This document shows positions 38,267 through 61,153 of a DNA stretch of 64,000 nt, in pieces. The position numbers and the translations under genes were made by a program. Source of the stretch: Desulfosudaceae bacterium (GTDB lineage Bacteria; Desulfobacterota; Desulfobacteria; Desulfobacterales; Desulfosudaceae); contig CAXXDV010000001.1 in assembly GCA_963674745.2 (NCBI GenBank), forward strand, positions 1,440,001 to 1,504,000, in the 5' to 3' direction. The notes below the pieces were generated by a model that was not told where the DNA came from, made no database searches, and saw nothing but the letters and a program-made list of their open reading frames with translations. Positions within the stretch are counted from its first letter, which is position 1. Each line of letters opens with the position of its first letter.

Positions 38267-38340
38267 TGAGGGATCGTCTAATGGCAGGACGACGGGTTCT
38301 GGCCCCGTTAGTCAAGGTTCGAATCCTTGTCCCTCAGCCA
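38267..38340 (+). tRNA. tRNA-Gln (CTG)
   Basis: Acceptor TGAGGGA/TCCCTCA-G-CCA, anticodon stem ACGGG/CCCGT with loop TT-CTG-GC, GGTTCGAATCC T-arm. Confidence 0.95.
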
Positions 38341-42609: not shown

Positions 42610-43319
42610 GTGTGCCGGGCACGGCACATGTTCTTAAAAGTGAGCCAAGGCTATCATATATTTGATAATTTTGGCAAGTCTTAGACCCAGCCTGATGGAG
42701 GCGAAGGGTGTAGCGGTAGTGCAACGGGGTACCGGTGACGGTGCTTCGGGAGGAAGCCGCCCTGCTGCGGAAGGGTACCGCGAAGGTACGGGATGACGCA
42801 CAGGAATCGAGTATAAGGCGCGCACGCCGGGACGAGTCTGCACAACAAGGCAAAGTCCTCTATCCATCTTAAGGCGTGTCCGTAAACTCGGCATTTACGT
42901 ACCGAAAGACACGTGCTTACCCCGGGAGATCTCTCCTGTGCCGTACAACGGCTGAGGGTCGGGTAACCGGCCCTGACCGCAGGGGAGAAGTCAGCAGAAG
43001 GCATAGTAGCCGGCGGAAACGAGCCGGGCCTCCCTTAAGCGGGAGAAGTATACCCGGAGGACTCACCCCGGTGAAGGCCGGAACGGTGCCCGGACCGAAT
43101 GGCACGGGTAAATGGTGGTGGCAAGTAAGGGAGTATCTCTTACGGGGATAATGCGGCAGCTGCCGAAATTCACGTAGCGAGCTTTCTCTGAAAACCCGGT
43201 GGAGCTGGTGGGATAACTCACAGCCGGTTTCATCAGTACCAGCCGAACCGCCTTGGTACGTGATCCGTATGCCAGGTGGTGTGGGAGGGGGTAGCCGTGA
43301 GGCTACTCCCTATCCCAAT
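42610..43319 (+). mobile_element. ORF-less group IIC-attC intron, copy 1 (710 nt)
   Basis: 5' GTGTG; DV GAACCGCC..GGTGGTG with CGC triad; DVI ending CCCAAT; splits attC core GT|TGGGGC; no RT ORF. Confidence 0.92.
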
Positions 43320-44496: not shown

Positions 44497-44512
44497 ATTT
44501 TTGGCGCTTAAC

Positions 44513-44848: not shown

Positions 44849-45558
44849 GTGTGCCGGGCACGGCACATGTTCTTAAAAGTGAGCCAAGGCTATCATATAT
44901 TTGATAATTTTGGCAAGTCTTAGACCCAGCCTGATGGAGGCGAAGGGTGTAGCGGTAGTGCAACGGGGTGCCAGGGACGGTGCTTCGGGAGGAAGCCGCC
45001 CTGCTGCGGCAGGGTACCGCGAAGGTACGGGATGACGCACAGGAATCGAGTATAAGGCGCGCACGCCGGGACGAGCCTGCACCACAAGGCAAAGTCCTCT
45101 ATCCATCTTAAGGCGTGTCCGTAAACTTGGCATTTACGTACCGAAAGACACGTGCTTACCCCGGGAGATCTCTCCTGTGCCGTACAACGGCTGAGGGTCG
45201 GGTAACCGGCCCTGACCGCAGGGGAGAAGTCAGCAGAAGGCATAGTAGCCGGCGGAAACGAGCCGGGCCTCCCTTAAGCGGGAGAAGTATACCCGGAGGA
45301 CTCACCCCGGTGAAGGCCGGAACGGTGCCCGGACCGAATGGCACGGGTAAATGGTGGTGGCAAGTAAGGGAGTATCTCTTACGGGGATAATGCGGCAGCT
45401 GCCGAAATTCACGTAGCGAGCTTTCTCTGAAAACCCGGTGGAACTGGTGGGATAACTCACAGCCGGTTTCATCAGTACCAGCCGAACCGCCTTGGTACGT
45501 GATCCGTATGCCAGGTGGTGTGGGAGGGGGTAGCCGTGAGGCTACTCCCTATCCCAAT
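44849..45558 (+). mobile_element. ORF-less group IIC-attC intron, copy 2 (710 nt)
   Basis: About 8 substitutions vs copy 1; splits GT|TAAGCGG core. Confidence 0.92.
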
Positions 45559-46934: not shown

Positions 46935-46962
46935 GATATTTTTATCCTACTCCGGTTTCTAA

Positions 46963-47770
46963 CGTCTGCAGCCAAAGTAGCCAGGGCTTCCAGTGACTGC
47001 CTTTAAGATGGTTGATGTTCAATTTCCCCCGAATGTTCAAAAACCGAATGCCCTGGCTATCATTTGGGCTGCTTGGTTAAGTGCCCGCATTATTCTGAAA
47101 GACTTTAACGACAGCATGGGCAAATAAATTAAATTATTTTTTTTCTTTTTACGCCTTGTCCATCATGAACCTATGAAAACGGGCCGGTCTCTTTTCATCC
47201 GGACAAATATGGCGCATTATCATTCGGCAGCGCCAGTTCGAGATTACAATTTATCTTTACTGGACAAAAATATCAACTTGGTGACAATTACAATTTTGGC
47301 AACGAATATCGATTTCAGCCAAAATTCTTTTTTTATTTGTTTCCCGTACAGATTCAGTGCACTTAACGTCTGCAGCCAAAGTAGCCAGGGCTTCCAGTGA
47401 CTGACTTTAAGGTGGTTGATGTTCAATTTCCCCCGAATGATCAAAACCCTAATGCCCTGGCTATCATTTGGGCTGCTTGGTTAAGTGCCCGTATCATTCA
47501 GAAAGGCTTTAACGACAGCATGGACAAAATAATAAAATGATTTTTTCTTTTTACGACTTGCCCATCATGAACCTATGAAAACGGGCAGGTCACTTTTCAT
47601 CCGGACAAATAAAGGCGCATTATCATCTGGCCGCGCCAGTTCAAAAATACAATTTATCGTTACTGACCGAAAAATTCAACTTGGTGACAATTACCATTTT
47701 GGCAACGAATATCGTTTTCAGCCAAAATTCATTTTTTTATTTTTTCCCCGTAAAGAATTTGTGCACTTAA
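46963..47770 (-). repeat. Gene-less ~404-bp cassette, copies 1-2 (46963-47366, 47367-47770)
   Basis: Body bounded by GTTAAGTGC..GCACTTAAC with near-identical attC; no conserved long ORF. Confidence 0.85.
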
Positions 47771-47819
47771 CGTCCGCCACCACCGGCGAGCAGGGTTTGC
47801 GGACTTTTTAAGGGTTAGT

Positions 47820-48407
47820 TCAACACCACACTATGCTAAAACTAAGGCAGGCCGCCCCTGCGAGTCCGTGTGAGTGGCGTTGTTGTGCAGCCGCATTAAC
47901 TTTTTTAAAAATTATACTATAGATTTCTATACCAATCGATTTGGCTTGGCTTTGTATGCTCTCTTTAATATTTTCGTACATATGATTTGAATAGTTGCAA
48001 TCGCTTTCCTGTCCCTCAGCGATTTGTGCAATCTTATCAGTTTCAATGTTCTTTAGCGCCTTTTGAAATTTATCTGAGAGACTATCTAAAACTATTTTTA
48101 TGTCTTTATCTCGAGTGGCATAATAAAAAGCCTTTGGCTCTTGGATTTTCCAGAGAATAGAAGCAGTATATTCAGGAAAACTGTTTAATTTTATCGGTAT
48201 TTGTTCAATTCTGCATACTTTAAATTCATGAACGTTTTCGGCAAAAGGTAATTTAAAATGAAGCCCGGGTTTAACAGGGCCTCTAACTATTTCTCCCTTT
48301 TGAGTAATGATAGCTTCACTACCTTCCATCACAGTGTAAACCGGTGAACCTGACCCACAAGCATAAAGAGTTAAGCACGGAATTAAGATTAATAATATTT
48401 TTCGCAT
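47820..48407 (-). CDS. SPFH/HflC-like domain lipoprotein (cassette)
   Basis: LYAC lipobox-like; YTVMEGSEAIITQKGEIV..PGLHFKLPF; reads into attC. Confidence 0.65.
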   Translation of the reverse strand: MRKILLILIPCLTLYACGSGSPVYTVMEGSEAIITQKGEIVRGPVKPGLHFKLPFAENVHEFKVCRIEQIPIKLNSFPEYTASILWKIQEPKAFYYATRDKDIKIVLDSLSDKFQKALKNIETDKIAQIAEGQESDCNYSNHMYENIKESIQSQAKSIGIEIYSIIFKKVNAAAQQRHSHGLAGAACLSFSIVWC

Positions 48408-48544
48408 AGAATACCGTTTTATGCTGCACAACGTCCGCCACCACCTGCGAGCAGGGAATGCGGTCTTCGCTAAAGTGAGTTTAACACCAAACTACGCCAA
48501 AGCCAAAAACAGCCCACCCCTGCGAGTCTGTGTGAGTGGCGTTG

Positions 48545-48973
48545 TTATACCTTTTCTCTTTTTTTCTTTAAAGTCGCTAATGAATTCACTATTGCTGCTA
48601 CAAGAAAGACGCCGCTTAGAAACAGCAATATTGGACATGAAATCATGACGAATTTCTCAGCAGGTGAATTGGGTACGACAGAAATGGAGGAAATTACAAG
48701 AAAGGGAATAAAACAAAGGAAGAAACCCGCCCAAAAGGAATGCTGCTTATGTTTCCCTGATTCCATATATTAAACCTTTTCAAATGTATAAAACATTCAT
48801 CCAAAACAAGATAACATTAAAACAACCCCATGACACGCAAAACCACCAATCAGGAATTTAATGGCGCTTGGCCTTTTCTGATCATTTATTTGTTCTAAAA
48901 GGACTTCTGCAATTCCAATAAATTCTAAAACTATTCCACAGACAGTCAGGATTATAACAAAAGGTATATCCAT
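48545..48973 (-). pseudogene. Disrupted membrane-protein cassette gene
   Basis: ATG 48973 (MDIPFVII..) is in frame with ORF 48545..48766 but interrupted by TGA (48797-48799) and TAA (48770-48772). Confidence 0.55.
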
Positions 48974-48993
48974 ATTCTTTTAGGTCGGTATAA

Positions 48994-49399
48994 CGTTTGC
49001 AGCCAAAGTAGCCAGGGCTTCCAGTGACTGACTTTAAGGTGGTTGACGTTCAATTTCCCCCGAATGTTCAAAACCCGAATGCCCTGGCTATCATTTGGGC
49101 TGCTTGGTTAAGTGCCCGCATTATTCAGAAAGACTTTAACGACAGCATGGGCAAATAAAATAAAATGATATTTTTCTTTTTACGCCTTGTCCATCATGAA
49201 CTTATGAAAACGGGTAGGTCTCTTTTCATCCGGACAAATAAAGGCGCATTATCATTTGGCCACGCCAGTTCGAAATTACAATTTATCTTTACTGGACAAA
49301 AATATCAACTTGGTGACAATTACCATTTTGGCAACGAATGGCGATTTCAGCCAAAATTCTTTTTTTTATTTTTTCCACGTACAGATTTAGTGCACTTAA
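48994..49399 (-). repeat. Gene-less cassette copy 3
   Basis: Homologous to 46963-47366. Confidence 0.85.
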
Positions 49400-49511
49400 C
49401 GTCCACCGTCACTTGGGAGCAGGGGAAACGTGACTTTTGCAACGCCACGTTAACACCGAACCAGAATACATTAAAAGCAGCGCGCCCCTGCGAGTCAAGT
49501 GCATGGTGTTG

Positions 49512-49904
49512 TTAGGCAGCATTTCCTTTTTTAGAAGCCAAAACTCCGAGTCCGCCGATTAAGGCTACCAGACTCCAAACATAAGGCGCTGGAGTTTCCC
49601 ACATGACATTGCTGCCCCAGAGGCCGAGCCCTATTCCAAGGCAAGCAAAGCCTGCACTCATACCTGTGGCAACAACTGCCATCGCGACATGGCCTGGTCT
49701 GATAGATGCGTACACATACATAATGATAATGGCAGCAACGGATACTGAACCCACATGCCACGAGAAGTGATGTAACCAGATTACTTCATTAGGTATATCG
49801 GTCATGGAGAGGGGCGGTAGCACCATCGGTGCGCCAAGAAACTCATGTCCAACAACGCCAGCGAATGATAGTGCTGCTGCAATGCGAAAAAACCAGAATG
49901 ACAT
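49512..49904 (-). CDS. Four-TM cassette membrane protein
   Basis: AGGAG RBS; stop in R'' box. Confidence 0.75.
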   Translation of the reverse strand: MSFWFFRIAAALSFAGVVGHEFLGAPMVLPPLSMTDIPNEVIWLHHFSWHVGSVSVAAIIIMYVYASIRPGHVAMAVVATGMSAGFACLGIGLGLWGSNVMWETPAPYVWSLVALIGGLGVLASKKGNAA

Positions 49905-49934
49905 ATTACATACTCCTGCTGATTAATGCCTAAC

Positions 49935-50150
49935 GAGTCTGTAGGAAAAGTCTATTTTCGATAAATTTTATCTTTTTTCAGAAAAACACCTTCGTAGAAT
50001 ATATTTTATACTAAAACATAAAATCCTTGCAAACCATCTATTTTAGATGGCTTCACAGAGATCATACAAAATCTTATATAACTTTCAGGTTTTCAAAAAT
50101 TGGCGGCAAAACCCTATGTTTTACTCAAATTTTACTTTTTCTACAGCCTC
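49935..50150. mobile_element. 216-bp MITE-like element, copy B
   Basis: Same TIRs; AAC on both sides at attC R'. Confidence 0.85.
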
Positions 50151-50265
50151 AACGTCCGCCACCACCGGCGAGCAGGGTTTGCGGACTTCTTTAAATGTCA
50201 GTTCAACACCACACTATGCCAAAACTAAGGCAGGGCGCCCCTGCGAGTCTGTGTGAGTGGCGTTG

Positions 50266-50601
50266 TTATAATCCATTTGTATTTATCATTTTTAAGCCCC
50301 CTACAATAAAAAGGATAAACAAAGAAGAAAATAGGGCCAAATAAAAAAATTGGTATCCTCTTAATATTTTGCAATATTTCAAAAGAGTAAGATTGTCTAT
50401 ATCAGTATATTGCTTTTTCCAAATGAATTTATGAAGTTTGTAAATAGTAGGCAGGGAATTGAACATAATATATATCTGCGGGCTCCCAATTGAAACCCAA
50501 GTATCATCATGTGACTGCCTCAGAATTGTGATTGTTTTCCATCTGAAGTATTCACCAAACAATAAAATAACTATCAAAATTATTATGATCAGATCTATCA
50601 T
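50266..50601 (-). CDS. Small two-TM cassette protein
   Basis: Fills cassette. Confidence 0.65.
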   Translation of the reverse strand: MIDLIIIILIVILLFGEYFRWKTITILRQSHDDTWVSIGSPQIYIMFNSLPTIYKLHKFIWKKQYTDIDNLTLLKYCKILRGYQFFYLALFSSLFILFIVGGLKMINTNGL

Positions 50602-50746
50602 TGATTTGGATTATAACGGCTGCCGCCAATGGGAGCCAGGGCTTCCACTGACTTGCCTTAATATTGGTTAAAGTTTGTTTTCCCCCGAATGGTCAAAATC
50701 CGGGTGCCCTGGCTCTCCTTTGGGCGGCATGGTTATGCGGGTTTTT

Positions 50747-51061
50747 TTATTCACCATTTTTGATTGCCTGCTTAATAATTGGAGCGACTGTATCTGGGCT
50801 TATCCTCCGGTCTTTGCAATATTTAGACTGCAACCAGACTGATAATTGCTTCTGTCCTTTACTTGCATTGCAACCTCGACAGCAAAGAACAATATTTTCT
50901 CTTGTAATAATTTTCGCATCATTGATTATATGTTCCCAACTTGCAGCAGATTTTGCAGATATCTTTGCTGGGGTAAATTCAACGCCGCAATAAACACACT
51001 TTTTATCCCTTTCCCTTACTTCCTTTTCAAGCCACTCTGGAATATTCCAATTATTTGCCAT
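50747..51061 (-). CDS. HNH endonuclease (cassette)
   Basis: VRERDKKCVYCG..WEHII..NIVLCCRGCNASKG. Confidence 0.88.
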   Translation of the reverse strand: MANNWNIPEWLEKEVRERDKKCVYCGVEFTPAKISAKSAASWEHIINDAKIITRENIVLCCRGCNASKGQKQLSVWLQSKYCKDRRISPDTVAPIIKQAIKNGE

Positions 51062-51218
51062 GAGAGATCGATGTATTGTTACGCATAACGTCTTCAGCCA
51101 AAGGGCGCCAGGGCTTCCTCCGACTGACTTAAAGATGGTTAAAATTTCAACTCAGCATGGCTGTTCAAAACCCGGGTGCCCTGGCGATCCTATTGCGCTG
51201 AATTGTTCGGTGCCGATT

Positions 51219-51629
51219 TTAGTTTCCGAAAAACAACTCTTTTGTCTCATAAAGCTTAGAACTATGTTTCCATCCAGACTCATGAGGTGGATCAGGGAAA
51301 GGGGCCTTTGCATAACCACAAGATTCCTTGAAATTAAATACAGCATGTGGAACTTGATTGATCAATAAGGCTGCTGCAGAAAAATCCCTCGTCCATATAA
51401 TTTTAATCATGGATGGTTTATCTCGGTCTATTACATCCTTAACATTGTATATATGTAGAGCATCTACGAAAAATTGACCAGAGAGAGAATAATCTCGCGC
51501 ATAAAAATAGCCTGTCTCACCATCATCTTCAAAGACAACTCCACGAATCCCATCAGATGTATCCGATTCAAGGACGATTTCTTCCCCGACCACGATTTCT
51601 TCTTCTACACCCAAAAATGGTGGCTTCAT
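51219..51629 (-). CDS. DUF2251-like cassette protein
   Basis: VVFEDDGETGYFYA..DALHIYNV..HAVFNF. Confidence 0.7.
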   Translation of the reverse strand: MKPPFLGVEEEIVVGEEIVLESDTSDGIRGVVFEDDGETGYFYARDYSLSGQFFVDALHIYNVKDVIDRDKPSMIKIIWTRDFSAAALLINQVPHAVFNFKESCGYAKAPFPDPPHESGWKHSSKLYETKELFFGN

Positions 51630-51644
51630 ATTTTATGCACCGAA

Positions 51645-52049
51645 CGTCTGCAGCCAAAGTAGCCAGGGCTTCCAGTGACTGACTTTAAGGTGGTTGATGT
51701 TCAATTTCCCCCGAATGTTCAAAAGCCGAATGCCCTGGCTATCATTTGGGCTGCTTGGTTAAGTGCCCGCATTATTCAGAAAGACTTTAACGACAGCATG
51801 GGCAAATAAATAAAATTAATTTTTTTCTTTTTACGCCTTGTCCATCATGAACTTATAAAAACGGGCAGGTCTCTTTTCATCCGGACAAATAAAGGCGCAT
51901 TATCATCTGGCCGCGCCAGTTCGAAATTACAATTTATCTTTACTGGACAAAAATATCAACTTGGTGACAATTATAATTTTGGCAACGAATGTCGAATTCA
52001 GCCAAAATTCTTTTTTTATTTTTTTCTCGTACAAATTCAGTGCACTTAA
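51645..52049 (-). repeat. Gene-less cassette copy 4
   Basis: Homologous to 46963-47366. Confidence 0.85.
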
Positions 52050-52050
52050 C

Positions 52051-52923
52051 GAGTCTGTAGGAAAAGTCTATTTTCGATAAATTTTATCTTTTTTCAGAAA
52101 AACACCTTCGTAGAATATATTTTATACTAAAACATAAAATCCTTGCAAACCATCTATTTTAGATGGCTTCACAGAGATCATACAAAATCTTATATAACTT
52201 TCAGGTTTTCAAAAATTGGCGGCAAAACCCTATGTTTTACTCAAATTTTACTTTTTCTACAGCCTCAACGAGTCTGTAGGAAAAGTCTATTTTCGATAAA
52301 TTTTATCTTTTTTCAGAAAAACACCTTCGTAGAATATATTTTATACTAAAACATAAAATCCTTGCAAACCATCTATTTTAGATGGCTTCACAGAGATCAT
52401 ACAAAATCTTATATAACTTTCAGGTTTTCAAAAATTGGCGGCAAAACCCTATGTTTTACTCAAATTTTACTTTTTCTACAGCCTCAACGAGTCTGTAGGA
52501 AAAGTCTATTTTCGATAAATTTTATCTTTTTTCAGAAAAACACCTTCGTAGAATATATTTTATACTAAAACATAAAATCCTTGCAAACCATCTATTTTAG
52601 ATGGCTTCACAGAGATCATACAAAATCTTATATAACTTTCAGGTTTTCAAAAATTGGCGGCAAAACCCTATGTTTTACTCAAATTTTACTTTTTCTACAG
52701 CCTCAACGAGTCTGTAGGAAAAGTCTATTTTCGATAAATTTTATCTTTTTTCAGAAAAACACCTTCGTAGAATATATTTTATACTAAAACATAAAATCCT
52801 TGCAAACCATCTATTTTAGATGGCTTCACAGAGATCATACAAAATCTTATATAACTTTCAGGTTTTCAAAAATTGGCGGCAAAACCCTATGTTTTACTCA
52901 AATTTTACTTTTTCTACAGCCTC
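52051..52923. mobile_element. Four tandem copies (C-F) of the 216-bp MITE-like element
   Basis: 52051-52266, 52270-52485, 52489-52704, 52708-52923; 219-bp period separated by AAC. Confidence 0.88.
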
Positions 52924-52965
52924 AACGTCTGAAGCCAGGGGCAGCCAGGGCTACTCCTGACCAGA

Positions 52966-53391
52966 TTATGGTTTTAAATTTTCGACTCCCCTCGGTTGCT
53001 CAACAAAGCCTGCCCTGGCTGTCCCTTTGCGCTTCTTGGTTATAAGGCTGATTATTATGGATAACGTGAATGTAATAACTGTGGCACATAATGCCAAAAA
53101 ACACACAAAGAAAAAATATGAATCCCAAAAAGGAGTTCCCAGAATTGGCAACCAAGTTAAAGCACAGGAATAAAACACAATTAAAGATATCATAAAATAT
53201 TTTGTATAATTTGATTTATGAAGATGCTTTAAACTCCATAATATGCCGAATACAAAGCCGATAATTCCAAAGAAGAAAATTGCCAAAATATAATGGTTTC
53301 CACTTTTCAAAACCGCGGATGACAAACCAGATAATGCGTTTAATTCATAATAAATAAATGGAATATATATTGTTGCCAGAAACCAACGCAT
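52966..53391 (-). CDS. Cassette membrane protein
   Basis: Start MRWFLATIY after R'; reads into attC. Confidence 0.65.
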   Translation of the reverse strand: MRWFLATIYIPFIYYELNALSGLSSAVLKSGNHYILAIFFFGIIGFVFGILWSLKHLHKSNYTKYFMISLIVFYSCALTWLPILGTPFWDSYFFFVCFLALCATVITFTLSIIISLITKKRKGTARAGFVEQPRGVENLKP

Positions 53392-53520
53392 TTCGAAAAG
53401 CCTTATAACGTCCGCCACCACCGGCGCGCAGGGTTTGCGGACTTCGCTAAAGTAAGTTAAACACCAAATTACGCCAAAACAAAGGCCGCCCGCCCCTGCG
53501 AGTCCGGGTGAGTGGCGTTG

Positions 53521-53811
53521 TTATATTCCAGTTTTTATTTTTATGAAAATAATTGCTGCCAGCAGCCCTATCATAGCACCAAAAATTATCGACAAATACC
53601 ATTTTGAAATATTCGTGAATTTTATAATTAGTGCCGGAAAGATCGAAATCAGGATTATTTTGAATAGACCTGAAATTAAATAAGGCCAATCCATAAAACC
53701 GTAATGCTTGAGCATAGTCAAAAAGAAAATGGAAAATAAACAAATTGTGCTTGCAAAATAAGCAAGTAATGCTTGTTTTGAATGAGCTAAAAATTTGCTT
53801 TGATCATCCAT
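53521..53811 (-). CDS. Three-TM cassette protein
   Basis: Start MDDQSKF; stop in R''. Confidence 0.65.
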   Translation of the reverse strand: MDDQSKFLAHSKQALLAYFASTICLFSIFFLTMLKHYGFMDWPYLISGLFKIILISIFPALIIKFTNISKWYLSIIFGAMIGLLAAIIFIKIKTGI

Positions 53812-53957
53812 AAATTTTCTCTTGTGGAATATAACGTCCGCCACCACCGGCGAGCAGGGTTTGCGGACTTCGCTAAAGTAAGTTTAACACCAAATTACAC
53901 CAAAACTAAGGCAGCACGCCCCTGCGAGTCCGGGTGGGTGGCGTTGTTAGGAGGCGT

Positions 53958-54398
53958 CTATCCCGGCGCCTCATATTCCAAATTTTTTAAATGTATAGGT
54001 AATGGTGTCGGTTTTGGCAATTCAATATTACCATATATTGTCTTTAATGGTTTATTGGGGTTGAGAAAGTGAAAAAAGAATACCCAGCGACACCCACTAT
54101 CATCAAGGTGGCGTTCATCGTAAGGGACTTGCCAGTTCTCTTTTGATACCCCTTTTTCTTCTTGTGTTATCGAAGCCCAGTCAGAAGGCTGAAGCGGCTG
54201 TTGTGAGAGAATCTCAATTAGGAACAGATTATCAAAATGTTCCGTAACGTGTCTTTTGGCTTCATCAAGTTCTGCGCCTTCCAACTCTTCTCCCCACTGT
54301 AATATCAAAGTCTTTTGAAAGGTAGCCTCATTTGCTTGGTATTTATGGACACCAATGACCTGAAGAGGCATAGTTTTGGGCTTTTTCTTGAAGAGCAT
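53958..54398 (-). CDS. Cassette hypothetical protein
   Basis: Start MLFKKKPK inside cassette; the ORF-track start lies in the attC. Confidence 0.7.
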   Translation of the reverse strand: MLFKKKPKTMPLQVIGVHKYQANEATFQKTLILQWGEELEGAELDEAKRHVTEHFDNLFLIEILSQQPLQPSDWASITQEEKGVSKENWQVPYDERHLDDSGCRWVFFFHFLNPNKPLKTIYGNIELPKPTPLPIHLKNLEYEAPG

Positions 54399-54531
54399 TA
54401 CTTCGTAAAGCCTCCTAACGTCCGCCACCACCGGCGAGCAGGGCTTGCGGACTTCGCTAAAGTAAAGTTCAACTCCAAATAACGCCAAAGCCAAAACAGC
54501 CCGCCCCTGCGAGTCTGTGTGAGTGGCGTTG

Positions 54532-55008
54532 TTATATTTTGCCTGTATTAATTTTATCTATAGCACGATCAAATTTGACCACCAATTCATTTAAAGTATC
54601 AACTGGACTCTTAGTAAAGGCTTTATCAGTAGGGTATAATGGCGCTACCCATTCGCATTCTTTGCAATTTTCGGCTATTGCAATCATTATGGTCAAAGAC
54701 CCTTTCCAAGATTCAATTATTTCATGCGGGTCACAGTTTGGAAAAACTTGCATCAATTTTTCCATCATTTTCTTTGTTGGGCTTTGAAGCAAATTTATCA
54801 CTTCAAGAGAATATTTAATCACATCTTTCGAGGCAGACGTCCTTGGCATTCCGACACAAATCGAAAAGCGCCAAAACCATTCCGCACATTCTTCTGAAAT
54901 ATCCGTGAAATATTCAGAATAGCTCAACAGGTCAAGTGAAGATGCATATTCGGGAAGAACGTGCATTTCAAATATGATTAATCTTGGATATTCTTTATAT
55001 TGCCACAT
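54532..55008 (-). CDS. Cassette hypothetical protein (duplicate of 59855..60331)
   Basis: Identical translation. Confidence 0.75.
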   Translation of the reverse strand: MWQYKEYPRLIIFEMHVLPEYASSLDLLSYSEYFTDISEECAEWFWRFSICVGMPRTSASKDVIKYSLEVINLLQSPTKKMMEKLMQVFPNCDPHEIIESWKGSLTIMIAIAENCKECEWVAPLYPTDKAFTKSPVDTLNELVVKFDRAIDKINTGKI

Positions 55009-55137
55009 ATCTTATAAAATATAACGTCCGCCACCACCGGCGAGCAGGGGATGCGGACTTCTTAAATGTTCGTTTAACACCACACTATGCTAAAACCCAA
55101 AACCGACCGCCCCTGCGAGTCCGGGTGAGTGGCGTTG

Positions 55138-55518
55138 TTATATGCCATTATTCTTTCTACTTATTAGTTCATATGTAGAATATTTAAATCTAATATATAT
55201 GGTAGCAAAACCAAATAAACCCAAAAGAGAAATTGATACGTATTTATATAAATTATAATTGATCCCAAAGCTTGTCAGATCGGAAATAACTCCCAAAATA
55301 ATCCATATAAAAGCAAGAACAAAAAGTGATAACATGAAAATGGCTCTTCTTCTGGCATTTATATTTGGAATTAAAATAGAATTGCATAATGGACATTCAA
55401 TTTCAGATAAATAAAAAAAATTACGACGGTTTTTTCTTTGCTTCATCGCTTCGGAGTTCAGATCGAATTCTCCACTACAATCTGGACATTGAATGTTTAG
55501 TAATCTTTTTTTGAACAT
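55138..55518 (-). CDS. Zn-ribbon (CPDC/CPLC) + two-TM cassette protein (duplicate of 56135..56515)
   Basis: Identical translation. Confidence 0.75.
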   Translation of the reverse strand: MFKKRLLNIQCPDCSGEFDLNSEAMKQRKNRRNFFYLSEIECPLCNSILIPNINARRRAIFMLSLFVLAFIWIILGVISDLTSFGINYNLYKYVSISLLGLFGFATIYIRFKYSTYELISRKNNGI

Positions 55519-55681
55519 GTGAAATTATTTTTGTGCATTTAAGTTCAAAGCATATAACGGCGGCCGCCAATGGGAGCCAGGGCTTCCACTGACCTGCCTT
55601 AAAGATGGTTTATGTTCAATTCCCCCGAAATTTCAAAAACCGAATGCCCTGGCTCTCCTTTGAGCGGCCTTGTTATATGAA

Positions 55682-56002
55682 TTACGCCACTATTGAAAAC
55701 AACAAACCAATTACTATAATCAAAAGTCCATATTCTTTTGCCCGAACTCTTGTCATAAATTTTATCTTTGATTCATCCAACTTGTTTCTGAGTATTATTG
55801 AGATAAATCCAAAAATGATCCAAAAAGGTCCAATATACCCAAAGCTTCCAGAGTGAGGGATTGTATTTACAGTGATATAGGACGCAAGAATGAGAATAAA
55901 CAACCCCAAAACTATAAAAAATTTATTATTTTTCCATAGCCCCAAACCCCAGAATAAGAATGAAAACAAAAACGGTATTGATAAATGATTAATATAGTTC
56001 AT
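55682..56002 (-). CDS. Small multi-TM cassette protein
   Basis: Fills cassette. Confidence 0.65.
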   Translation of the reverse strand: MNYINHLSIPFLFSFLFWGLGLWKNNKFFIVLGLFILILASYITVNTIPHSGSFGYIGPFWIIFGFISIILRNKLDESKIKFMTRVRAKEYGLLIIVIGLLFSIVA

Positions 56003-56134
56003 TCAATGATAATTCATATAACGTCCGCCACCACCGGCGAGCAGGGGATGCGGACTTCTTAAATGTTCGTTTAACACCACACTATGCTAAAACCCAAAAC
56101 CGACCGCCCCTGCGAGTCCGGGTGAGTGGCGTTG

Positions 56135-56515
56135 TTATATGCCATTATTCTTTCTACTTATTAGTTCATATGTAGAATATTTAAATCTAATATATATGGT
56201 AGCAAAACCAAATAAACCCAAAAGAGAAATTGATACGTATTTATATAAATTATAATTGATCCCAAAGCTTGTCAGATCGGAAATAACTCCCAAAATAATC
56301 CATATAAAAGCAAGAACAAAAAGTGATAACATGAAAATGGCTCTTCTTCTGGCATTTATATTTGGAATTAAAATAGAATTGCATAATGGACATTCAATTT
56401 CAGATAAATAAAAAAAATTACGACGGTTTTTTCTTTGCTTCATCGCTTCGGAGTTCAGATCGAATTCTCCACTACAATCTGGACATTGAATGTTTAGTAA
56501 TCTTTTTTTGAACAT
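56135..56515 (-). CDS. Zn-ribbon + two-TM cassette protein (second copy)
   Basis: Identical to 55138..55518. Confidence 0.75.
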   Translation of the reverse strand: MFKKRLLNIQCPDCSGEFDLNSEAMKQRKNRRNFFYLSEIECPLCNSILIPNINARRRAIFMLSLFVLAFIWIILGVISDLTSFGINYNLYKYVSISLLGLFGFATIYIRFKYSTYELISRKNNGI

Positions 56516-56666
56516 GTGAAATTATTTTTGTGCATTTAAGTTCAAAGCATATAACGTCCGCCACCACCGGCGAGCAGGGTTTTCGGACTTCTTAAAGGTT
56601 AGTTCAACACCACATTATGTTTAAACCAAGGCAGCCCGCCCCTGCGAGTCTGTGTGAGTGGCGTTG

Positions 56667-57047
56667 TTATGCAACTTGTATTATTGTTTTTCTAATTCCT
56701 GTTTTTGGGTCCCAGAAAACATAAAAGGACGTATCATCATGAAAATAGCCCGTGTTAACTGGAAGGTCAATTTGCCCGACAAAGACCATTGGCTGTCCTT
56801 TGGCGAATTGCCAATCGGAACCTTGAATCCAATTTGGTGGGGACGATATTGAAATGAACTGTTCCTTCATGACTTTCCGCAATGATGTGGCGATATCTTC
56901 GTCTCCTTCACGTGCAGAACTTATCAATTTCAAGAAAAACTCCTCCGATTCAGATGAAGTAAGTGGATCGATATTGTATTCACTGCATATCGGTAAAATT
57001 TCATCTAAATCATTACTTGAAATTTTGCTTTCGAAGGTATCTTCCAC
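56667..57047 (-). CDS. Cassette hypothetical protein (YwqG/DUF1963-like C-terminal motif)
   Basis: PPNWIQ..PMVFVGQID..FYVF..IIQ; GGAG RBS. Confidence 0.65.
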   Translation of the reverse strand: MEDTFESKISSNDLDEILPICSEYNIDPLTSSESEEFFLKLISSAREGDEDIATSLRKVMKEQFISISSPPNWIQGSDWQFAKGQPMVFVGQIDLPVNTGYFHDDTSFYVFWDPKTGIRKTIIQVA

Positions 57048-57184
57048 ATTTTCTCCGTTGCATAACGTCCGCCACCACCGGCGAGCAGGGTTTGCGGACT
57101 TTGCTAAAGTGAGTTTAACACCAAACTATGCCAGGACAAAAGCAGCCCGCCCCTGCGAGTCCGGGTGAGTGGCATTGTTATCTT

Positions 57185-57673
57185 TCAGTTTTTTAATATT
57201 TTTGATTCTATTAATTCATTTTTTAAAATCATAAAAATTCCTGCTACTACCGTAAAACCATGTGCAAATAAATTACTCCAATAGAAACCTCCTCCCGAGC
57301 GAATTGGTAAAAGGAATAAATCTCTGATTAAGGAGGACGTTCCACTTGTGAAAAAGTATATGCCTAAAAGAATAAGCCAAAAGGATAGATTAGAGTAATT
57401 GGGGTCGCTTTCATCTGTCTTGGGTGTTACTTTAGAATCTCCGGAAATAAAATTTGATATTTTTTCGGCCTTCGAAATTAAGAGGATTGCAACAATAATA
57501 TAAAATATCGGGAGAAAAGAAGCCCAAATATTATATAGCACAGGATTCTTGATAAACTTTTCCTGATTGATAGCAAATGAAGAGATTAATCCAGAAAATG
57601 CATATGGTATTTGAACTAAAAGATAAAGGCCGTAAATACGTGTTGCAATTTCAATGGCTTTTTTTGTGCTCAT
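57185..57673 (-). CDS. Four-TM cassette protein
   Basis: Start MSTKKAI after AAGGA; the ORF-track start lies in the attC. Confidence 0.7.
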   Translation of the reverse strand: MSTKKAIEIATRIYGLYLLVQIPYAFSGLISSFAINQEKFIKNPVLYNIWASFLPIFYIIVAILLISKAEKISNFISGDSKVTPKTDESDPNYSNLSFWLILLGIYFFTSGTSSLIRDLFLLPIRSGGGFYWSNLFAHGFTVVAGIFMILKNELIESKILKN

Positions 57674-57848
57674 AGAGTTCCTTGAAGAAAGATAACGGTT
57701 GCAGCCAAAGGGCGCCAGGGCTTCTTCTGACTGTCTTAAAAATGGTTTATGTTCAAGTTCCATCGAAAATTCAAAACCCGTGTGCCCTGGCGGTCCTTTT
57801 GGGCTGCATGGTTATACGAATAATTATAGATTGGTTCTATGACTTTCA

Positions 57849-58118
57849 TTATTTAAATAAGCCAGATAATCTTGTAATCAAAGAAAGGCTTACAAGTATC
57901 AACAATACTACTCCCCATGTTCTAAACCAAAATGTATTTTCCCCGATAAAATATTTTTTGTTTTCTTCTGATTTCCCAAGTGCTGCACTCTTTTCCATGC
58001 GCCAATAAATGTTTCCAATTAACTTGATAAACTTGATCAATGATTTAGGTTTAAATATCAGATAAAGGCTTATAATTAACACGATCGTATCATTGATAAT
58101 AATAAATATATCTATCAT
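57849..58118 (-). CDS. Small two-TM cassette protein
   Basis: Fills cassette. Confidence 0.6.
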   Translation of the reverse strand: MIDIFIIINDTIVLIISLYLIFKPKSLIKFIKLIGNIYWRMEKSAALGKSEENKKYFIGENTFWFRTWGVVLLILVSLSLITRLSGLFK

Positions 58119-58266
58119 AAAGGTTTCTTTTTCTCTTTCTTGTTCAACGTATAACGTCTACCGTCACTTGGGAGCAGGGGAAAAGTGACTTTTGCAAAGC
58201 CACGTAAACACCGAACCACGATACTGTAAAAGCAGCACGCCCCTGCGAGTCAAGTGCATGGTATTG

Positions 58267-58767
58267 TTAGCCTTTACTATTTATATTATTAACGAAAATT
58301 CCAAATATTTTTGTTTCAGTTCCTATGAGATCTGGGATTGATGAGTAATTCATTTCTTTTGTCCCATTACTCTTTGTACAGTACTTTTCATTTAACATGA
58401 AAGATATAACCTTTGGCAAAGAATCTACATGTACAACTCTTTGATAAAAACTGATTGGGTCAGAAATTGTAAAATTCATATCAGCTCGAAATGGTTTTGC
58501 TCTCGGAGGGCACCCAAGAAAATTTATTTGAACGATGATTTGTCCGCTTGGATATCTGACGACCTGATCGGCATTACCTAGCTTAAAATGATATCCTTGG
58601 GTCTTTATTGGGCCTTTTATTATTTTTCCAAAACGAGTAACAATAATTTGCTCACCTGGTTTAATTACGTACACAGATTCATATGCAAATTGGGCCGCCA
58701 AACCAATAATTGCCAATATAATTATTGGGGCTTTTACTTTTTGTGTATATTTGTCCGGTAGCTGCAT
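58267..58767 (-). CDS. SPFH/HflC-like domain protein (cassette)
   Basis: SVYVIKPGEQIIVTRFGKII..GYHFKL..FTISDPISFY. Confidence 0.7.
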   Translation of the reverse strand: MQLPDKYTQKVKAPIIILAIIGLAAQFAYESVYVIKPGEQIIVTRFGKIIKGPIKTQGYHFKLGNADQVVRYPSGQIIVQINFLGCPPRAKPFRADMNFTISDPISFYQRVVHVDSLPKVISFMLNEKYCTKSNGTKEMNYSSIPDLIGTETKIFGIFVNNINSKG

Positions 58768-58914
58768 TTTTATGTAAGGCTAACGTCGGCCGCCAATGGG
58801 AGCCAGGGCTTCCACTGTCTTGCCTTAAAAGTGATTAAAGTTCGTTTTCCTCCAAATGTTCAAAAACCGAATGCCCTGGCTCTCCTTTGGGCGGCCTTGT
58901 TCGCTGCAATATTT

Positions 58915-59319
58915 TTATTGATTGTTATTTAGTTTTTCAAGAGCTTCTGATACACGGGAATATCTTGGAATATTCATAGATTCCACAAGATTCTTCAGCT
59001 CTTCATTATTATCTGAGTATTCCCAATAATTTGAATTAAAACGTTTAAGTATTGTTTCGGCTGTTTTATAATCTCCGCTTTCTATTAATTTTTCGACATG
59101 CGACGTAACAGAAGTCACTAATTCTCGATGAAAATATCTCTCGCTTGCTTCCAGCTTCTCATTTACTTGATTAGTCCAGAAAATACATGTGATTGCAAGT
59201 ATGGTGAAAGCAAAATAACGACAAAATTTAGCCCATTTCTTAAACTTAATTATATCCGAAACTATAAAGAGGATAAACGCTATTAAAAATGGGAATGGAG
59301 ACGATATAAATTCTTGCAT
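58915..59319 (-). CDS. Two-TM cassette protein
   Basis: Fills cassette. Confidence 0.7.
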   Translation of the reverse strand: MQEFISSPFPFLIAFILFIVSDIIKFKKWAKFCRYFAFTILAITCIFWTNQVNEKLEASERYFHRELVTSVTSHVEKLIESGDYKTAETILKRFNSNYWEYSDNNEELKNLVESMNIPRYSRVSEALEKLNNNQ

Positions 59320-59335
59320 AGCTTATTCCAGCGAA

Positions 59336-59741
59336 CGTCTGCAGCCAAAGTAGCCAGGGCTTCCAGTGACTGCCTTTAAGATGGTTGATGTTCAATTTCC
59401 CCCGAAAGTGCAAAAGCCGAATGCCCTGGCTATCATTTGGGCTGCTTGGTTAAGTGCCCGCATTATTGAGAAAGACTTTAACGACAGCATGGGCAAATAA
59501 AATAAAATGATATTTTTCTTTTTACGCCTTGTCCATCATGAACTTATGAAATCGGGTAGGTCTCTTTTCATCCGGACAAATAAAGGCGCATTATCATTTG
59601 GCCGCGCCAGTTCGAAATTACAATTTATCTTTACTGGCCGAAAAATTCAACTTGGTGACAATTACCATTTTGGCAATGAATGTCGTTTTCAGCCAAAATT
59701 CTTTTTTTTATTTTTTTCCCGTACAGATTCAGTGCACTTAA
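59336..59741 (-). repeat. Gene-less cassette copy 5
   Basis: Homologous to 46963-47366. Confidence 0.85.
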
Positions 59742-59854
59742 CGTCCGCCACCACCGGCGAGCAGGGCTTGCGGACTTCGCTAAAGTAAAGTTCAACTCCA
59801 AATAACGCCAAAGCCAAAACAGCCCGCCCCTGCGAGTCTGTGTGAGTGGCGTTG

Positions 59855-60331
59855 TTATATTTTGCCTGTATTAATTTTATCTATAGCACGATCAAATTTG
59901 ACCACCAATTCATTTAAAGTATCAACTGGACTCTTAGTAAAGGCTTTATCAGTAGGGTATAATGGCGCTACCCATTCGCATTCTTTGCAATTTTCGGCTA
60001 TTGCAATCATTATGGTCAAAGACCCTTTCCAAGATTCAATTATTTCATGCGGGTCACAGTTTGGAAAAACTTGCATCAATTTTTCCATCATTTTCTTTGT
60101 TGGGCTTTGAAGCAAATTTATCACTTCAAGAGAATATTTAATCACATCTTTCGAGGCAGACGTCCTTGGCATTCCGACACAAATCGAAAAGCGCCAAAAC
60201 CATTCCGCACATTCTTCTGAAATATCCGTGAAATATTCAGAATAGCTCAACAGGTCAAGTGAAGATGCATATTCGGGAAGAACGTGCATTTCAAATATGA
60301 TTAATCTTGGATATTCTTTATATTGCCACAT
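59855..60331 (-). CDS. Cassette hypothetical protein (second copy)
   Basis: Identical to 54532..55008. Confidence 0.75.
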   Translation of the reverse strand: MWQYKEYPRLIIFEMHVLPEYASSLDLLSYSEYFTDISEECAEWFWRFSICVGMPRTSASKDVIKYSLEVINLLQSPTKKMMEKLMQVFPNCDPHEIIESWKGSLTIMIAIAENCKECEWVAPLYPTDKAFTKSPVDTLNELVVKFDRAIDKINTGKI

Positions 60332-60347
60332 ATCTTATAAAATATAA

Positions 60348-61153
60348 CGTCTGCAGCCAAAGTAGCCAGGGCTTCCAGTGACTGACTTTAAGGTGGTTGA
60401 TGTTCAATTTCCCCCGAATGTTCAAAAGCCGAATGCCCTGGCTATCATTTGGGCTGCTTGGTTAAGTGCCCGCATTATTGAGAAAGACTTTAACGACAGC
60501 ATGGGCAAATAAATTAAAATGATATTTTTCTTTTTACGCCTTGTCCATCATGAACTTATGAAAACGGGTAGGTCTCTTTTCATCCGGACAAATAAAGGCG
60601 CAAAATCAAACAGTCCCGCCAGATCAAAATACAGCTTATCTTTACTGATTGAAAATATCAATCTGGTGACAATTTCCATAGTGGCAACGAAGATCATTTT
60701 TCGTCAAAATTCTTTTTTTATTTTTTCCCGTACAGATTAAGTGCACTTAACGTCTGCAGCCAAAGTAGCCAGGGCTTCCAGTGACTGACTTTAAGGTGGT
60801 TGATGTTCAATTTCCCCCGAATGTTCAAAAGCCGAATGCCCTGGCTATCATTTGGGCTGCTTGGTTAAGTGCCCGCATTATTCAGAAAGACTTAAACGAC
60901 AGCATGGGCAAATAAAATAAAATGATATTTTTCTTTTTACGCCTTGTCCATCATGAACTTATGAAAACGGGTAGGTCTCTTTTCATCCGGACAAATAAAG
61001 GCTCAAAATCAAACAGTCCCGCCAGATCAAAATACAGCTTATCTTTACTGATTGAAAATATCAATCTGGTGACAATTTCCATAGTGGCAACGAAGATCAT
61101 TTTTCGTCAAAATTCTTTTTTTATTTTTTCCCGTACAGATTAAGTGCACTTAA
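60348..61153 (-). repeat. Gene-less cassette copies 6-7 (divergent variant; 60348-60750, 60751-61153)
   Basis: Same ends and attC; middle ~110 bp diverged from copies 1-5. Confidence 0.85.

Follow-up and report, generated by a model that had tools for sequence, protein, structure and literature searches.

Anatomy of the X cassettes in the window

We analyzed a stretch of 64,000 nucleotides (the window) from a Desulfosudaceae bacterium (assembly GCA_963674745.2, contig CAXXDV010000001.1, positions 1,440,001 to 1,504,000 of the forward strand), in which a gene-less integron cassette of about 404 bp occurs seven times. The cassette family is here named X, and "sense" refers to the minus strand of the window. 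The genome has a size of 5.55 Mb in three contigs, and the window belongs to contig 1. The host is a sulfate-reducing bacterium and not a Vibrio, and dsrA is present in its genome above the curated cut-off. An earlier reading of the window from its letters alone (the sequence-only reading) had placed seven repeats among 36 complete cassettes and had assigned a single shared attC subtype to the seven. All three statements were borne out, and the exact limits of the copies, from 46963-47366 through 60751-61153, are listed below.

46963..47366, minus strand: X copy 1, subtype A, 404 bp; attC at about 46963-47083
47367..47770, minus strand: X copy 2, subtype A, 404 bp; in tandem with copy 1; the most diverged copy of the window
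48994..49399, minus strand: X copy 3, subtype A, 406 bp; the reference copy
48994..49114, minus strand: attC of X copy 3, with the R'' box ACTTAAC at the content side and the R' box GTT... at the far end; imperfect hairpin
51645..52049, minus strand: X copy 4, subtype A, 405 bp; its 5' end adjoins four perfect 219-bp tandem units
59336..59741, minus strand: X copy 5, subtype A, 406 bp
60348..60750, minus strand: X copy 6, subtype B, 403 bp; in tandem with copy 7
60751..61153, minus strand: X copy 7, subtype B, 403 bp

A repeat search returned seven direct copies with starts at 46961, 47365, 48992, 51643, 59334, 60346 and 60749, and the mean column identity in the alignment of the seven is 91%. 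Each unit of 403-406 bp lies on the minus strand and consists of approximately 283 bp of AT-rich content and its own attC of 121-124 bp. On that strand, the limits of the unit are G|TTAAGTGCAC ... GCAGACG|TT, with unrelated sequence outside both ends. These limits and the minus-strand open reading frames (ORFs) of the neighbouring cassettes show that the array runs on the minus strand. An array on the plus strand was considered and rejected, as the attC is found only at the low-coordinate end of the X unit and the neighbouring ORFs have the opposite orientation.

The profile search identified 37 attC sites between 40177 and 63850, in agreement with 36 complete cassettes. The seven window copies have one attC type in common, to which the other attCs of the genome are 72-87% identical. 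The inverse core sites R'' (RYYYAAC) and R' (GTTRRRY) were recognized in 27 of the 27 X copies of the genome, as ACTTAAC at the content side and as G|TTAAGT, which is completed by the next unit. As single-stranded DNA, the bottom strand of the X attC folds into an imperfect hairpin of -22.5 kcal/mol (z -2.90, 1 of 200 shuffles as good). With its G|TT limits, its place in an array of like-oriented attC sites and the integron integrases of the genome, X displays the features that define an integron cassette.

Directly upstream of X copy 4, at 52048-52927, a 219-bp unit occurs four times in perfect tandem (100% identity). Each of the four ends in CCTACAGACTCGTT, and X copy 4 is joined at that GTT. 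At the place expected for a full attC, the 219-bp unit has only the short inverted repeat CTACAG...CTGTAG. Sequence related to this unit, at 44507, 49929 and 62813, overlaps normal attC sites.

Copy number, mobility and variation of X

The genome contains a total of 27 X copies. Fourteen of these are located in the array of the window (contig 1, 1,480,177-1,531,328; 51 kb, 88 attC sites) and 13 are distributed among five further arrays of contigs 1 and 3. Approximately 240 attC matches were found in the genome, with one orientation per array, so that X makes up about one in nine of the attC-bounded units. Three intI genes score above the TIGR02249 cut-off and each adjoins an array. The TIGR02249 search revealed no integrase gene beside the array of the window, which is thus an integrase-less cluster, presumably without a Pc promoter.

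For comparisons among cassettes we used a census of 223 cassettes whose limits were set by consecutive attC sites. This census includes 24 X copies; the other three are two copies in first position and copy 4, which is merged with the tandem repeat. X is by far the largest family (24 of 223), followed by a family of 8 that is also gene-less, and the remaining families have at most 4 members. The X copies fall into two subtypes, A with 17 copies and B with 10. In the main array, where 13 X are found among 87 delimited cassettes, there are five adjacent X-X pairs (shuffle P = 0.015), three of like subtype and two that combine A with B. Since two pairs are mixed, simple tandem duplication does not explain the adjacency, and the pairs may have arisen by insertion beside a resident X copy.

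The second gene-less family consists of eight cassettes of 391-396 bp (contig 1 at 1515031, 1518378, 1518771, 1522724 and 2114930; contig 3 at 37536, 1826489 and 2344156). Its attC is the closest to that of X (85-87% identity, as compared to 72-84% for the others), it has a sense TTGAAA-16-TATATT site, and it is located directly downstream of an X copy twice. This family (392 bp, 8 copies) was considered as a distant homologue of X for the covariation analysis and rejected, since only the attC is related and the contents are unlike by eye.

That X is a mobile cassette, as the sequence-only reading had proposed, is well supported. The same unit with exact G|TT limits is found in 27 places with differing neighbours, including the first position at two attI sites. 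The content of copy 3 (286 bp) recurs with 100% identity in a contig 3 copy whose neighbours differ. One X copy, at position 29,521 of contig 3, is directly preceded by an attI region, and an intact intI starts approximately 300 bp away. Another, at position 906,365 of contig 1, follows an attI-like sequence and a 5' remnant of intI. When this locus is compared with the integron of contig 1, identity amounts to 69% over 275 nt for the intI remnant and to 77% over 75 nt for the attI-like part. The locus, at about 906,360-907,600, has the appearance of a decayed integron in which the 5' intI-like part has no TIGR02249 score and X is the first cassette. In contigs of four public runs aligned to window positions 48400-50000, X content was covered at approximately 82-97% identity in metagenome contigs of three studies other than the probable source study, and one contig of 452 nt joins X content to a different attC. 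Thus, based on its limits and surroundings we conclude that X is a genuine, recently mobile integron cassette.

Three X copies (contig 1 at 1523095 and 2106254; contig 3 at 29505) have a different central attC segment between the same arms, which suggests homologous recombination rather than the integrase as the source of the swapped segment. Two other cassettes of the window array are also duplicated at 100% identity, with 54416-54715 equal to 59739-60038 and 55019-55318 equal to 56016-56315.

The variation among the copies is unevenly distributed along the content. The consensus sequences of subtypes A and B differ in 35 alignment columns, of which 29 are located in a patch of 120 columns (57-176) and none in a core of 60 columns (177-236) that contains the hairpin described below. 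Among the 27 copies, variants shared between copies number 3 in the 60 core columns, as compared to 45 in the 120 patch columns. In the hairpin segment, 1 column is variable in 177-196 and 12 in 177-236. Private variants were found at similar density in the core (9 in 60 columns) and elsewhere in the content (28 in 227 columns; p = 0.66), with 0 in the 33 columns of the attC 5' arm. Thus, the uniformity of the core lies in old, propagated variation and not in recent mutation. This pattern fits either exchange between the subtypes or selection at the level of spread.

In the surroundings of the array, two sets of matches to the Rfam group II intron domains D1-D4 were observed at 42729-43030 and 44968-45269, on the plus strand and thus opposite to the cassettes; their RF02001 scores are 120.9 and 109.5 bits. 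A transfer RNA gene (59.6 bits) is located at 38267-38337 on the plus strand, approximately 1.8 kb past the last attC of the array (40177).

Coding potential, hairpin and promoter-like sites

The longest ORF on the sense strand is 24-49 amino acids in the census copies, and most X copies have an ORF of 62-115 amino acids on the antisense strand. The sense ORFs are within the 210-bp limit of Blanco et al. (2024) and at the edge of the 150-bp limit of Boucher et al. (2006), and the antisense ORFs exceed these limits. By ORF length on either strand, X would thus not count as gene-less; only 2 of the 223 delimited cassettes of any family are without an ORF of 60 amino acids on both strands. The antisense frame is not kept among the copies, however long it may be in each: all 10 copies of subtype B have lost 1 nt at column 139 and 2 copies of subtype A have lost 1 nt at column 174, each of which shifts the frame, and the frame contains an A-tract of variable length. 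The subtype A frame has no stop inside the cassette, and in copy 4 its start codon ATG is missing. The 30 substitutions between the A and B consensus sequences in the antisense ORF are distributed as 11, 12 and 7 on codon positions 1, 2 and 3, with no third-position bias. Four X ORFs matched no Pfam family. In a search of 5.8 billion proteins, the matches were four ORFs at 82-94% identity, which represent metagenome copies of X, and one weak unrelated match; tblastx against the own genome returned X family members only. X thereby agrees with the description of non-coding cassettes by Boucher et al. (2006), which is based on the lack of protein matches and of codon-like substitutions. Based on the frameshifting indels, the codon positions, the Pfam search and the near-identical protein matches we conclude that X contains no conserved protein gene. 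The sequence-only reading had likewise seen no ORF conserved across copies, and a translated ORF that could account for the conservation of X was looked for by the same means and not found.

The least variable part of the content is an inverted repeat, which is described here with the promoter-like sites of reference copy 3.

49181..49248, minus strand: nested hairpin of three helices and 19 pairs; least variable part of the content
49165..49193, minus strand: P2, the best sense site (TGGACA-17-TATCAT, 10 of 12 positions); candidate promoter, which would read through the attC into the next cassette
49280..49308, minus strand: P1 (TTGATA-17-TAAATT, 9 of 12), upstream of P2
49139..49166, plus strand: antisense promoter-like site (ACGACA-16-TAAAAT, 9 of 12), found in 20 of 24 copies
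49320..49380 (approximate), plus strand: AU-rich hairpin followed by a T-tract of 8+7, terminator-like; not called by the terminator scan

The three nested stems proposed from the sequence alone are present, with 97.8% of 456 pair cells paired as compared to 35-53% with slid partners. The stems GCCTT/AAGGC and TTGTCC/GGACAA overlap on AA, so that the outer helix consists of GCC/GGC and its neighbours. The 3' arm of the hairpin coincides with the -35 hexamer of the TGGACA-17-TATCAT site.

The hairpin was further analyzed for signs of selection on an RNA structure. No compensatory changes were found in any of the 19 pairs, in an alignment of 24 distinct rows with 92% mean identity that gives the test very low power; all measures were also reached by 500 of 500 column shuffles, and the covariation term of RNAalifold is -0.39 kcal/mol. 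The 161-nt stretch has a minimum free energy that does not stand out, with z -1.72 in the sense direction (11 of 200 shuffles as good) and z -0.42 in the antisense direction. The sequence-only reading had based its argument for a minus-strand RNA on two substitutions, GGGCAA in copy 2 and TTTTTAT in copy 4, that retain G-U pairs. Both substitutions are as described and form wobble pairs on the sense strand only, but the selection of examples was one-sided. A G-to-A change in the outer helix (AAAGC), seen in four distinct rows from outside the window, gives a wobble on the plus (antisense) strand only. Changes that break pairs on both strands affect four pair positions, in 2, 2, 1 and 1 distinct rows, and include AAGTC in copy 2 and GATTTCAT in copy 5 of the window. 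The pair-breaking changes thus outnumber the two wobbles, and the wobble changes show no strand asymmetry. Two wobble-compatible changes among six singleton changes in the stems would be about the number expected from random transitions.

At gathering scores, no Rfam family matched the X cassettes, and a search to E 10 gave only matches with E above 3. Complementarity of the conserved part of X to other loci was not above chance (best E 0.16). Thus, the hairpin is a real inverted repeat without support as a selected RNA structure: compensatory changes, strand asymmetry, depletion of mutations and a match to Rfam were all looked for in the X copies, and none was found.

The copies are too alike for the covariation analysis, which is without power since no divergent homologue of X was found. 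The genome collection contains 3 species genomes of the host genus and 13 of its family, and a BLAST-type search identified X in 0 of the 2 other genomes of the genus and in 0 of the 12 other genomes of the family. Nor was a homologue found in 400 sampled genomes of the order. In 55 of these there were matches with E of at most 0.01, all of them low-complexity matches of 20-50 nt, for the most part located in the A-tract (query 16-59) or in the T/A-rich spacer (query 209-275). With a covariance model of 162 positions and 19 pairs, 150 genomes of the order besides that of the host yielded 0 matches at E of at most 0.01. The hairpin core and a 25-mer from the attC arm were also sought as exact patterns in 185,579 species genomes, each with 0 matches, and a metagenome scan for the hairpin core gave 3, all of them chance matches in sequences otherwise unlike an X cassette.

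Promoter-like sites were predicted in silico by counting matches to a 12-position sigma-70-like consensus. No RNA run came up among the public runs listed for this DNA. The sequence-only reading had noted the motif TTGA[T/A][A/T]-17-TAA[A/G][T/C]T, at 47276-47248 in copy 1, and had suggested an internal promoter. This motif, here named P1, is indeed found in all seven window copies, as TTGATA or TTGAAT followed after 17 nt by TAAATT or TAAGCT. It reaches 9 of 12 matches in only 9 of the 24 census copies, and the -10 hexamer TAAGCT of window copies 6 and 7 agrees with the consensus at 3 of 6 positions. An internal promoter is plausible from these predictions, but the better candidate is P2, TGGACA-17-TATCAT, which is located 79 nt before the attC.

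A sense site with at least 10 of 12 matches was found in 19 of 24 X copies, as compared to 26 of 199 other cassettes, a number that includes 6 of the 8 copies of the second gene-less family. The G+C content of X (35.9%) is equal to that of the other cassettes (36.2%), with 50.5% for the genome. The density of sense sites is 5.08 per kb in X and 1.74 per kb elsewhere. On the antisense strand, both subtypes contain an AU-rich hairpin followed by a T-tract, formed by differing sequences.

Possible roles of X

Gene-less cassettes in high copy number have been described in Vibrio, where highly paralogous non-coding families reach 45 and 34 copies in two strains of V. vulnificus (Boucher et al. 2006, PMC1382264). 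According to the same source, homologues of these cassettes are either very close or absent, and a selfish nature or a promoter function was proposed. X resembles the V. vulnificus families as they are described there, with no conserved ORF or protein match, many copies, and homologues that are near-identical or not found. It differs from them in that the host carries dsrA and belongs to a small family outside Vibrio, and in that the copies are distributed among three intI-bearing integrons and several arrays that have no integrase, rather than gathered in one superintegron.

In a second group, promoter activity has been measured. Most of the gene-less Vibrio cassettes tested by Blanco et al. 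(2024, PMC11014356) showed sense promoter activity, and among the ORF-less cassettes in which promoter activity was measured, one occupied the first position and one carried an antisense promoter (Tansirichaiya et al. 2019, PMC6557892; Blanco et al. 2024, PMC11014356). The sense promoters of these promoter cassettes raise the expression of downstream cassettes (PMC11014356; PMC6557892). X is similarly short, AT-rich and gene-less, with sigma-70-like sites on both strands and two copies in first position. Its promoters are predicted, however, while those of the published cassettes were measured (PMC11014356, PMC6557892); it is shorter, at about 404 bp as compared to 491-666 bp in Blanco et al. 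(2024, PMC11014356); and its 27-fold amplification has no counterpart in the passages on promoter cassettes that we cite from these two papers. Finally, sRNA-Xcc1 of Xanthomonas campestris is an integron-encoded trans-acting small RNA (Chen et al. 2011, as cited in PMC6557892). This ORF-less cassette with an RNA product is a precedent for the idea of a non-coding RNA, from which X differs, as far as the citing source describes it, in that its RNA product is hypothetical, its structure has no covariation support and no Rfam family matches. X appears to fit the paralogous non-coding kind in every tested respect and the promoter-cassette kind by prediction only.

X probably either supplies internal promoters or is a selfish passenger. 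Judged from the predicted sites, internal promoters seem the most likely explanation. The genuine, recently mobile and gene-less cassette would then best be read as a "promoter cassette" for the host, an interpretation in which we place about as much trust as doubt. IntI-type recombination at G|TT, perhaps together with homologous recombination, has brought X to its 27 places. In the promoter scenario, the predicted sense sites would fire through the X attC into the downstream cassettes, with P2 as the main promoter and TTGATA-17-TAAATT further upstream as a second one. The anatomy, copy number and mobility of X and its missing coding signature are established; its promoter activity and the benefit of that activity to the host are inferences.

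Several observations weigh against internal promoters. Antisense sites are as dense in X as sense sites (6.28 per kb), and promoter-like matches are common in AT-rich DNA, with 26 found as compared to 14.0 +/- 3.9 after shuffling of a region that itself contains four X copies. Five of 24 X copies have an altered -10 hexamer at P2, and as the X copies are relatives, the 19 of 24 copies with a strong site come close to a single observation. Purifying selection on the resident copies is not visible, as private mutations are not depleted in the core that contains the hairpin and the -35 hexamer. The five adjacent X-X pairs make little sense for a promoter role. In silico promoter calls also did not predict the activity that was measured by Blanco et al. 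(2024, PMC11014356).

The excess of adjacent pairs would be more readily understood if X had no role in the host and owed its amplification only to its attC subtype, which would either serve the resident integrases as an exceptionally good substrate or recombine with its own copies; promoter activity, if any, would then be incidental to AT-rich DNA. We regard this as possible, with doubt prevailing. Neither of the two largest families (24+3 and 8 copies) carries a gene, and the second has the attCs nearest to those of X. Two X copies are first at an attI, the entry point of new cassettes, and private mutations are even over the content, with the attC 5' arm as the exception. The same idea was put forward for the 45-copy non-coding family of V. 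vulnificus (Boucher et al. 2006, PMC1382264). Selfish amplification leaves the scarcity of shared variants in the core relative to the adjacent patch unexplained, although recombination between the subtypes could produce such a pattern, and the recombination efficiency of an attC cannot be judged from its sequence. The uniform core and the T-tract that follows the antisense hairpin in both subtypes, despite their differing sequences, would fit a cassette that encodes a structured small RNA of 150-220 nt, acting in cis or in trans and transcribed in the sense direction from P1, or in the antisense direction from ACGACA-16-TAAAAT to the hairpin and T-tract. A trans-acting RNA from a cassette has a precedent in sRNA-Xcc1 (as cited in PMC6557892). 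We nevertheless consider a small RNA unlikely. Besides the 0 of 19 compensatory pairs, the shuffles that reach every measure and the covariation term of -0.39 kcal/mol, the one-sided changes comprise 2 that fit the sense strand only, 1 (in four copies) that fits the antisense strand only and at least 5 that break pairs. Neither fold has a notable z-score, Rfam and complementarity to other loci gave nothing above chance, singletons are undepleted in the core, and the terminator scan did not report the antisense hairpin.

The antisense strand could also be taken to carry a protein gene in reverse orientation, either decayed or of an unusual kind, as a plus-strand ORF of 73-116 amino acids starting with MIFFF... 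or MKTGR.... Toxin-antitoxin cassettes are often reversed in arrays. An antisense ORF of at least 62 amino acids is open in most X copies, two frames are open over approximately 47 codons of AT-rich DNA, and metagenome gene callers annotated the ORF as a hypothetical protein. Yet the frame differs between the subtypes and, through the indels and the A-tract, also within subtype A; the subtype A ORF runs out of the cassette without a stop, copy 4 lacks the ATG, and no ribosome-binding site was seen when the sequence before the ATG was read. In the absence of third-position bias and of a Pfam match, and with near-identical copies as the only relatives, such a gene is very improbable. We also find it quite unlikely that X is a self-spreading regulatory module, that is, a cassette-borne riboregulator or promoter-plus-leader whose invariant 68-nt hairpin would be read as RNA on either strand and would act on cassette or integrase expression. 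Such a module would have colonised every array, first at two attI sites, and would be a 27-copy relative in kind of sRNA-Xcc1.

Selfish and promoter-bearing gene-less cassettes are already known from Vibrio; what is new about X is its unusual host and its spread over many arrays. Its two subtypes, which differ almost only in a patch of 120 bp, and its natural variants of the hairpin and of the -10 hexamer, such as TAACAT, AATCAT and the form in copy 4, make X a convenient test case. Long cassette arrays without an integrase have no obvious route to expression. If X does carry outward promoters, their amplification would explain the continued use of a 51-kb array in a sulfate reducer and would add a host other than Vibrio and Treponema to those of promoter cassettes. 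Should X be purely selfish, it would mean that empty cassettes can parasitise integron sites outside Vibrio as well.

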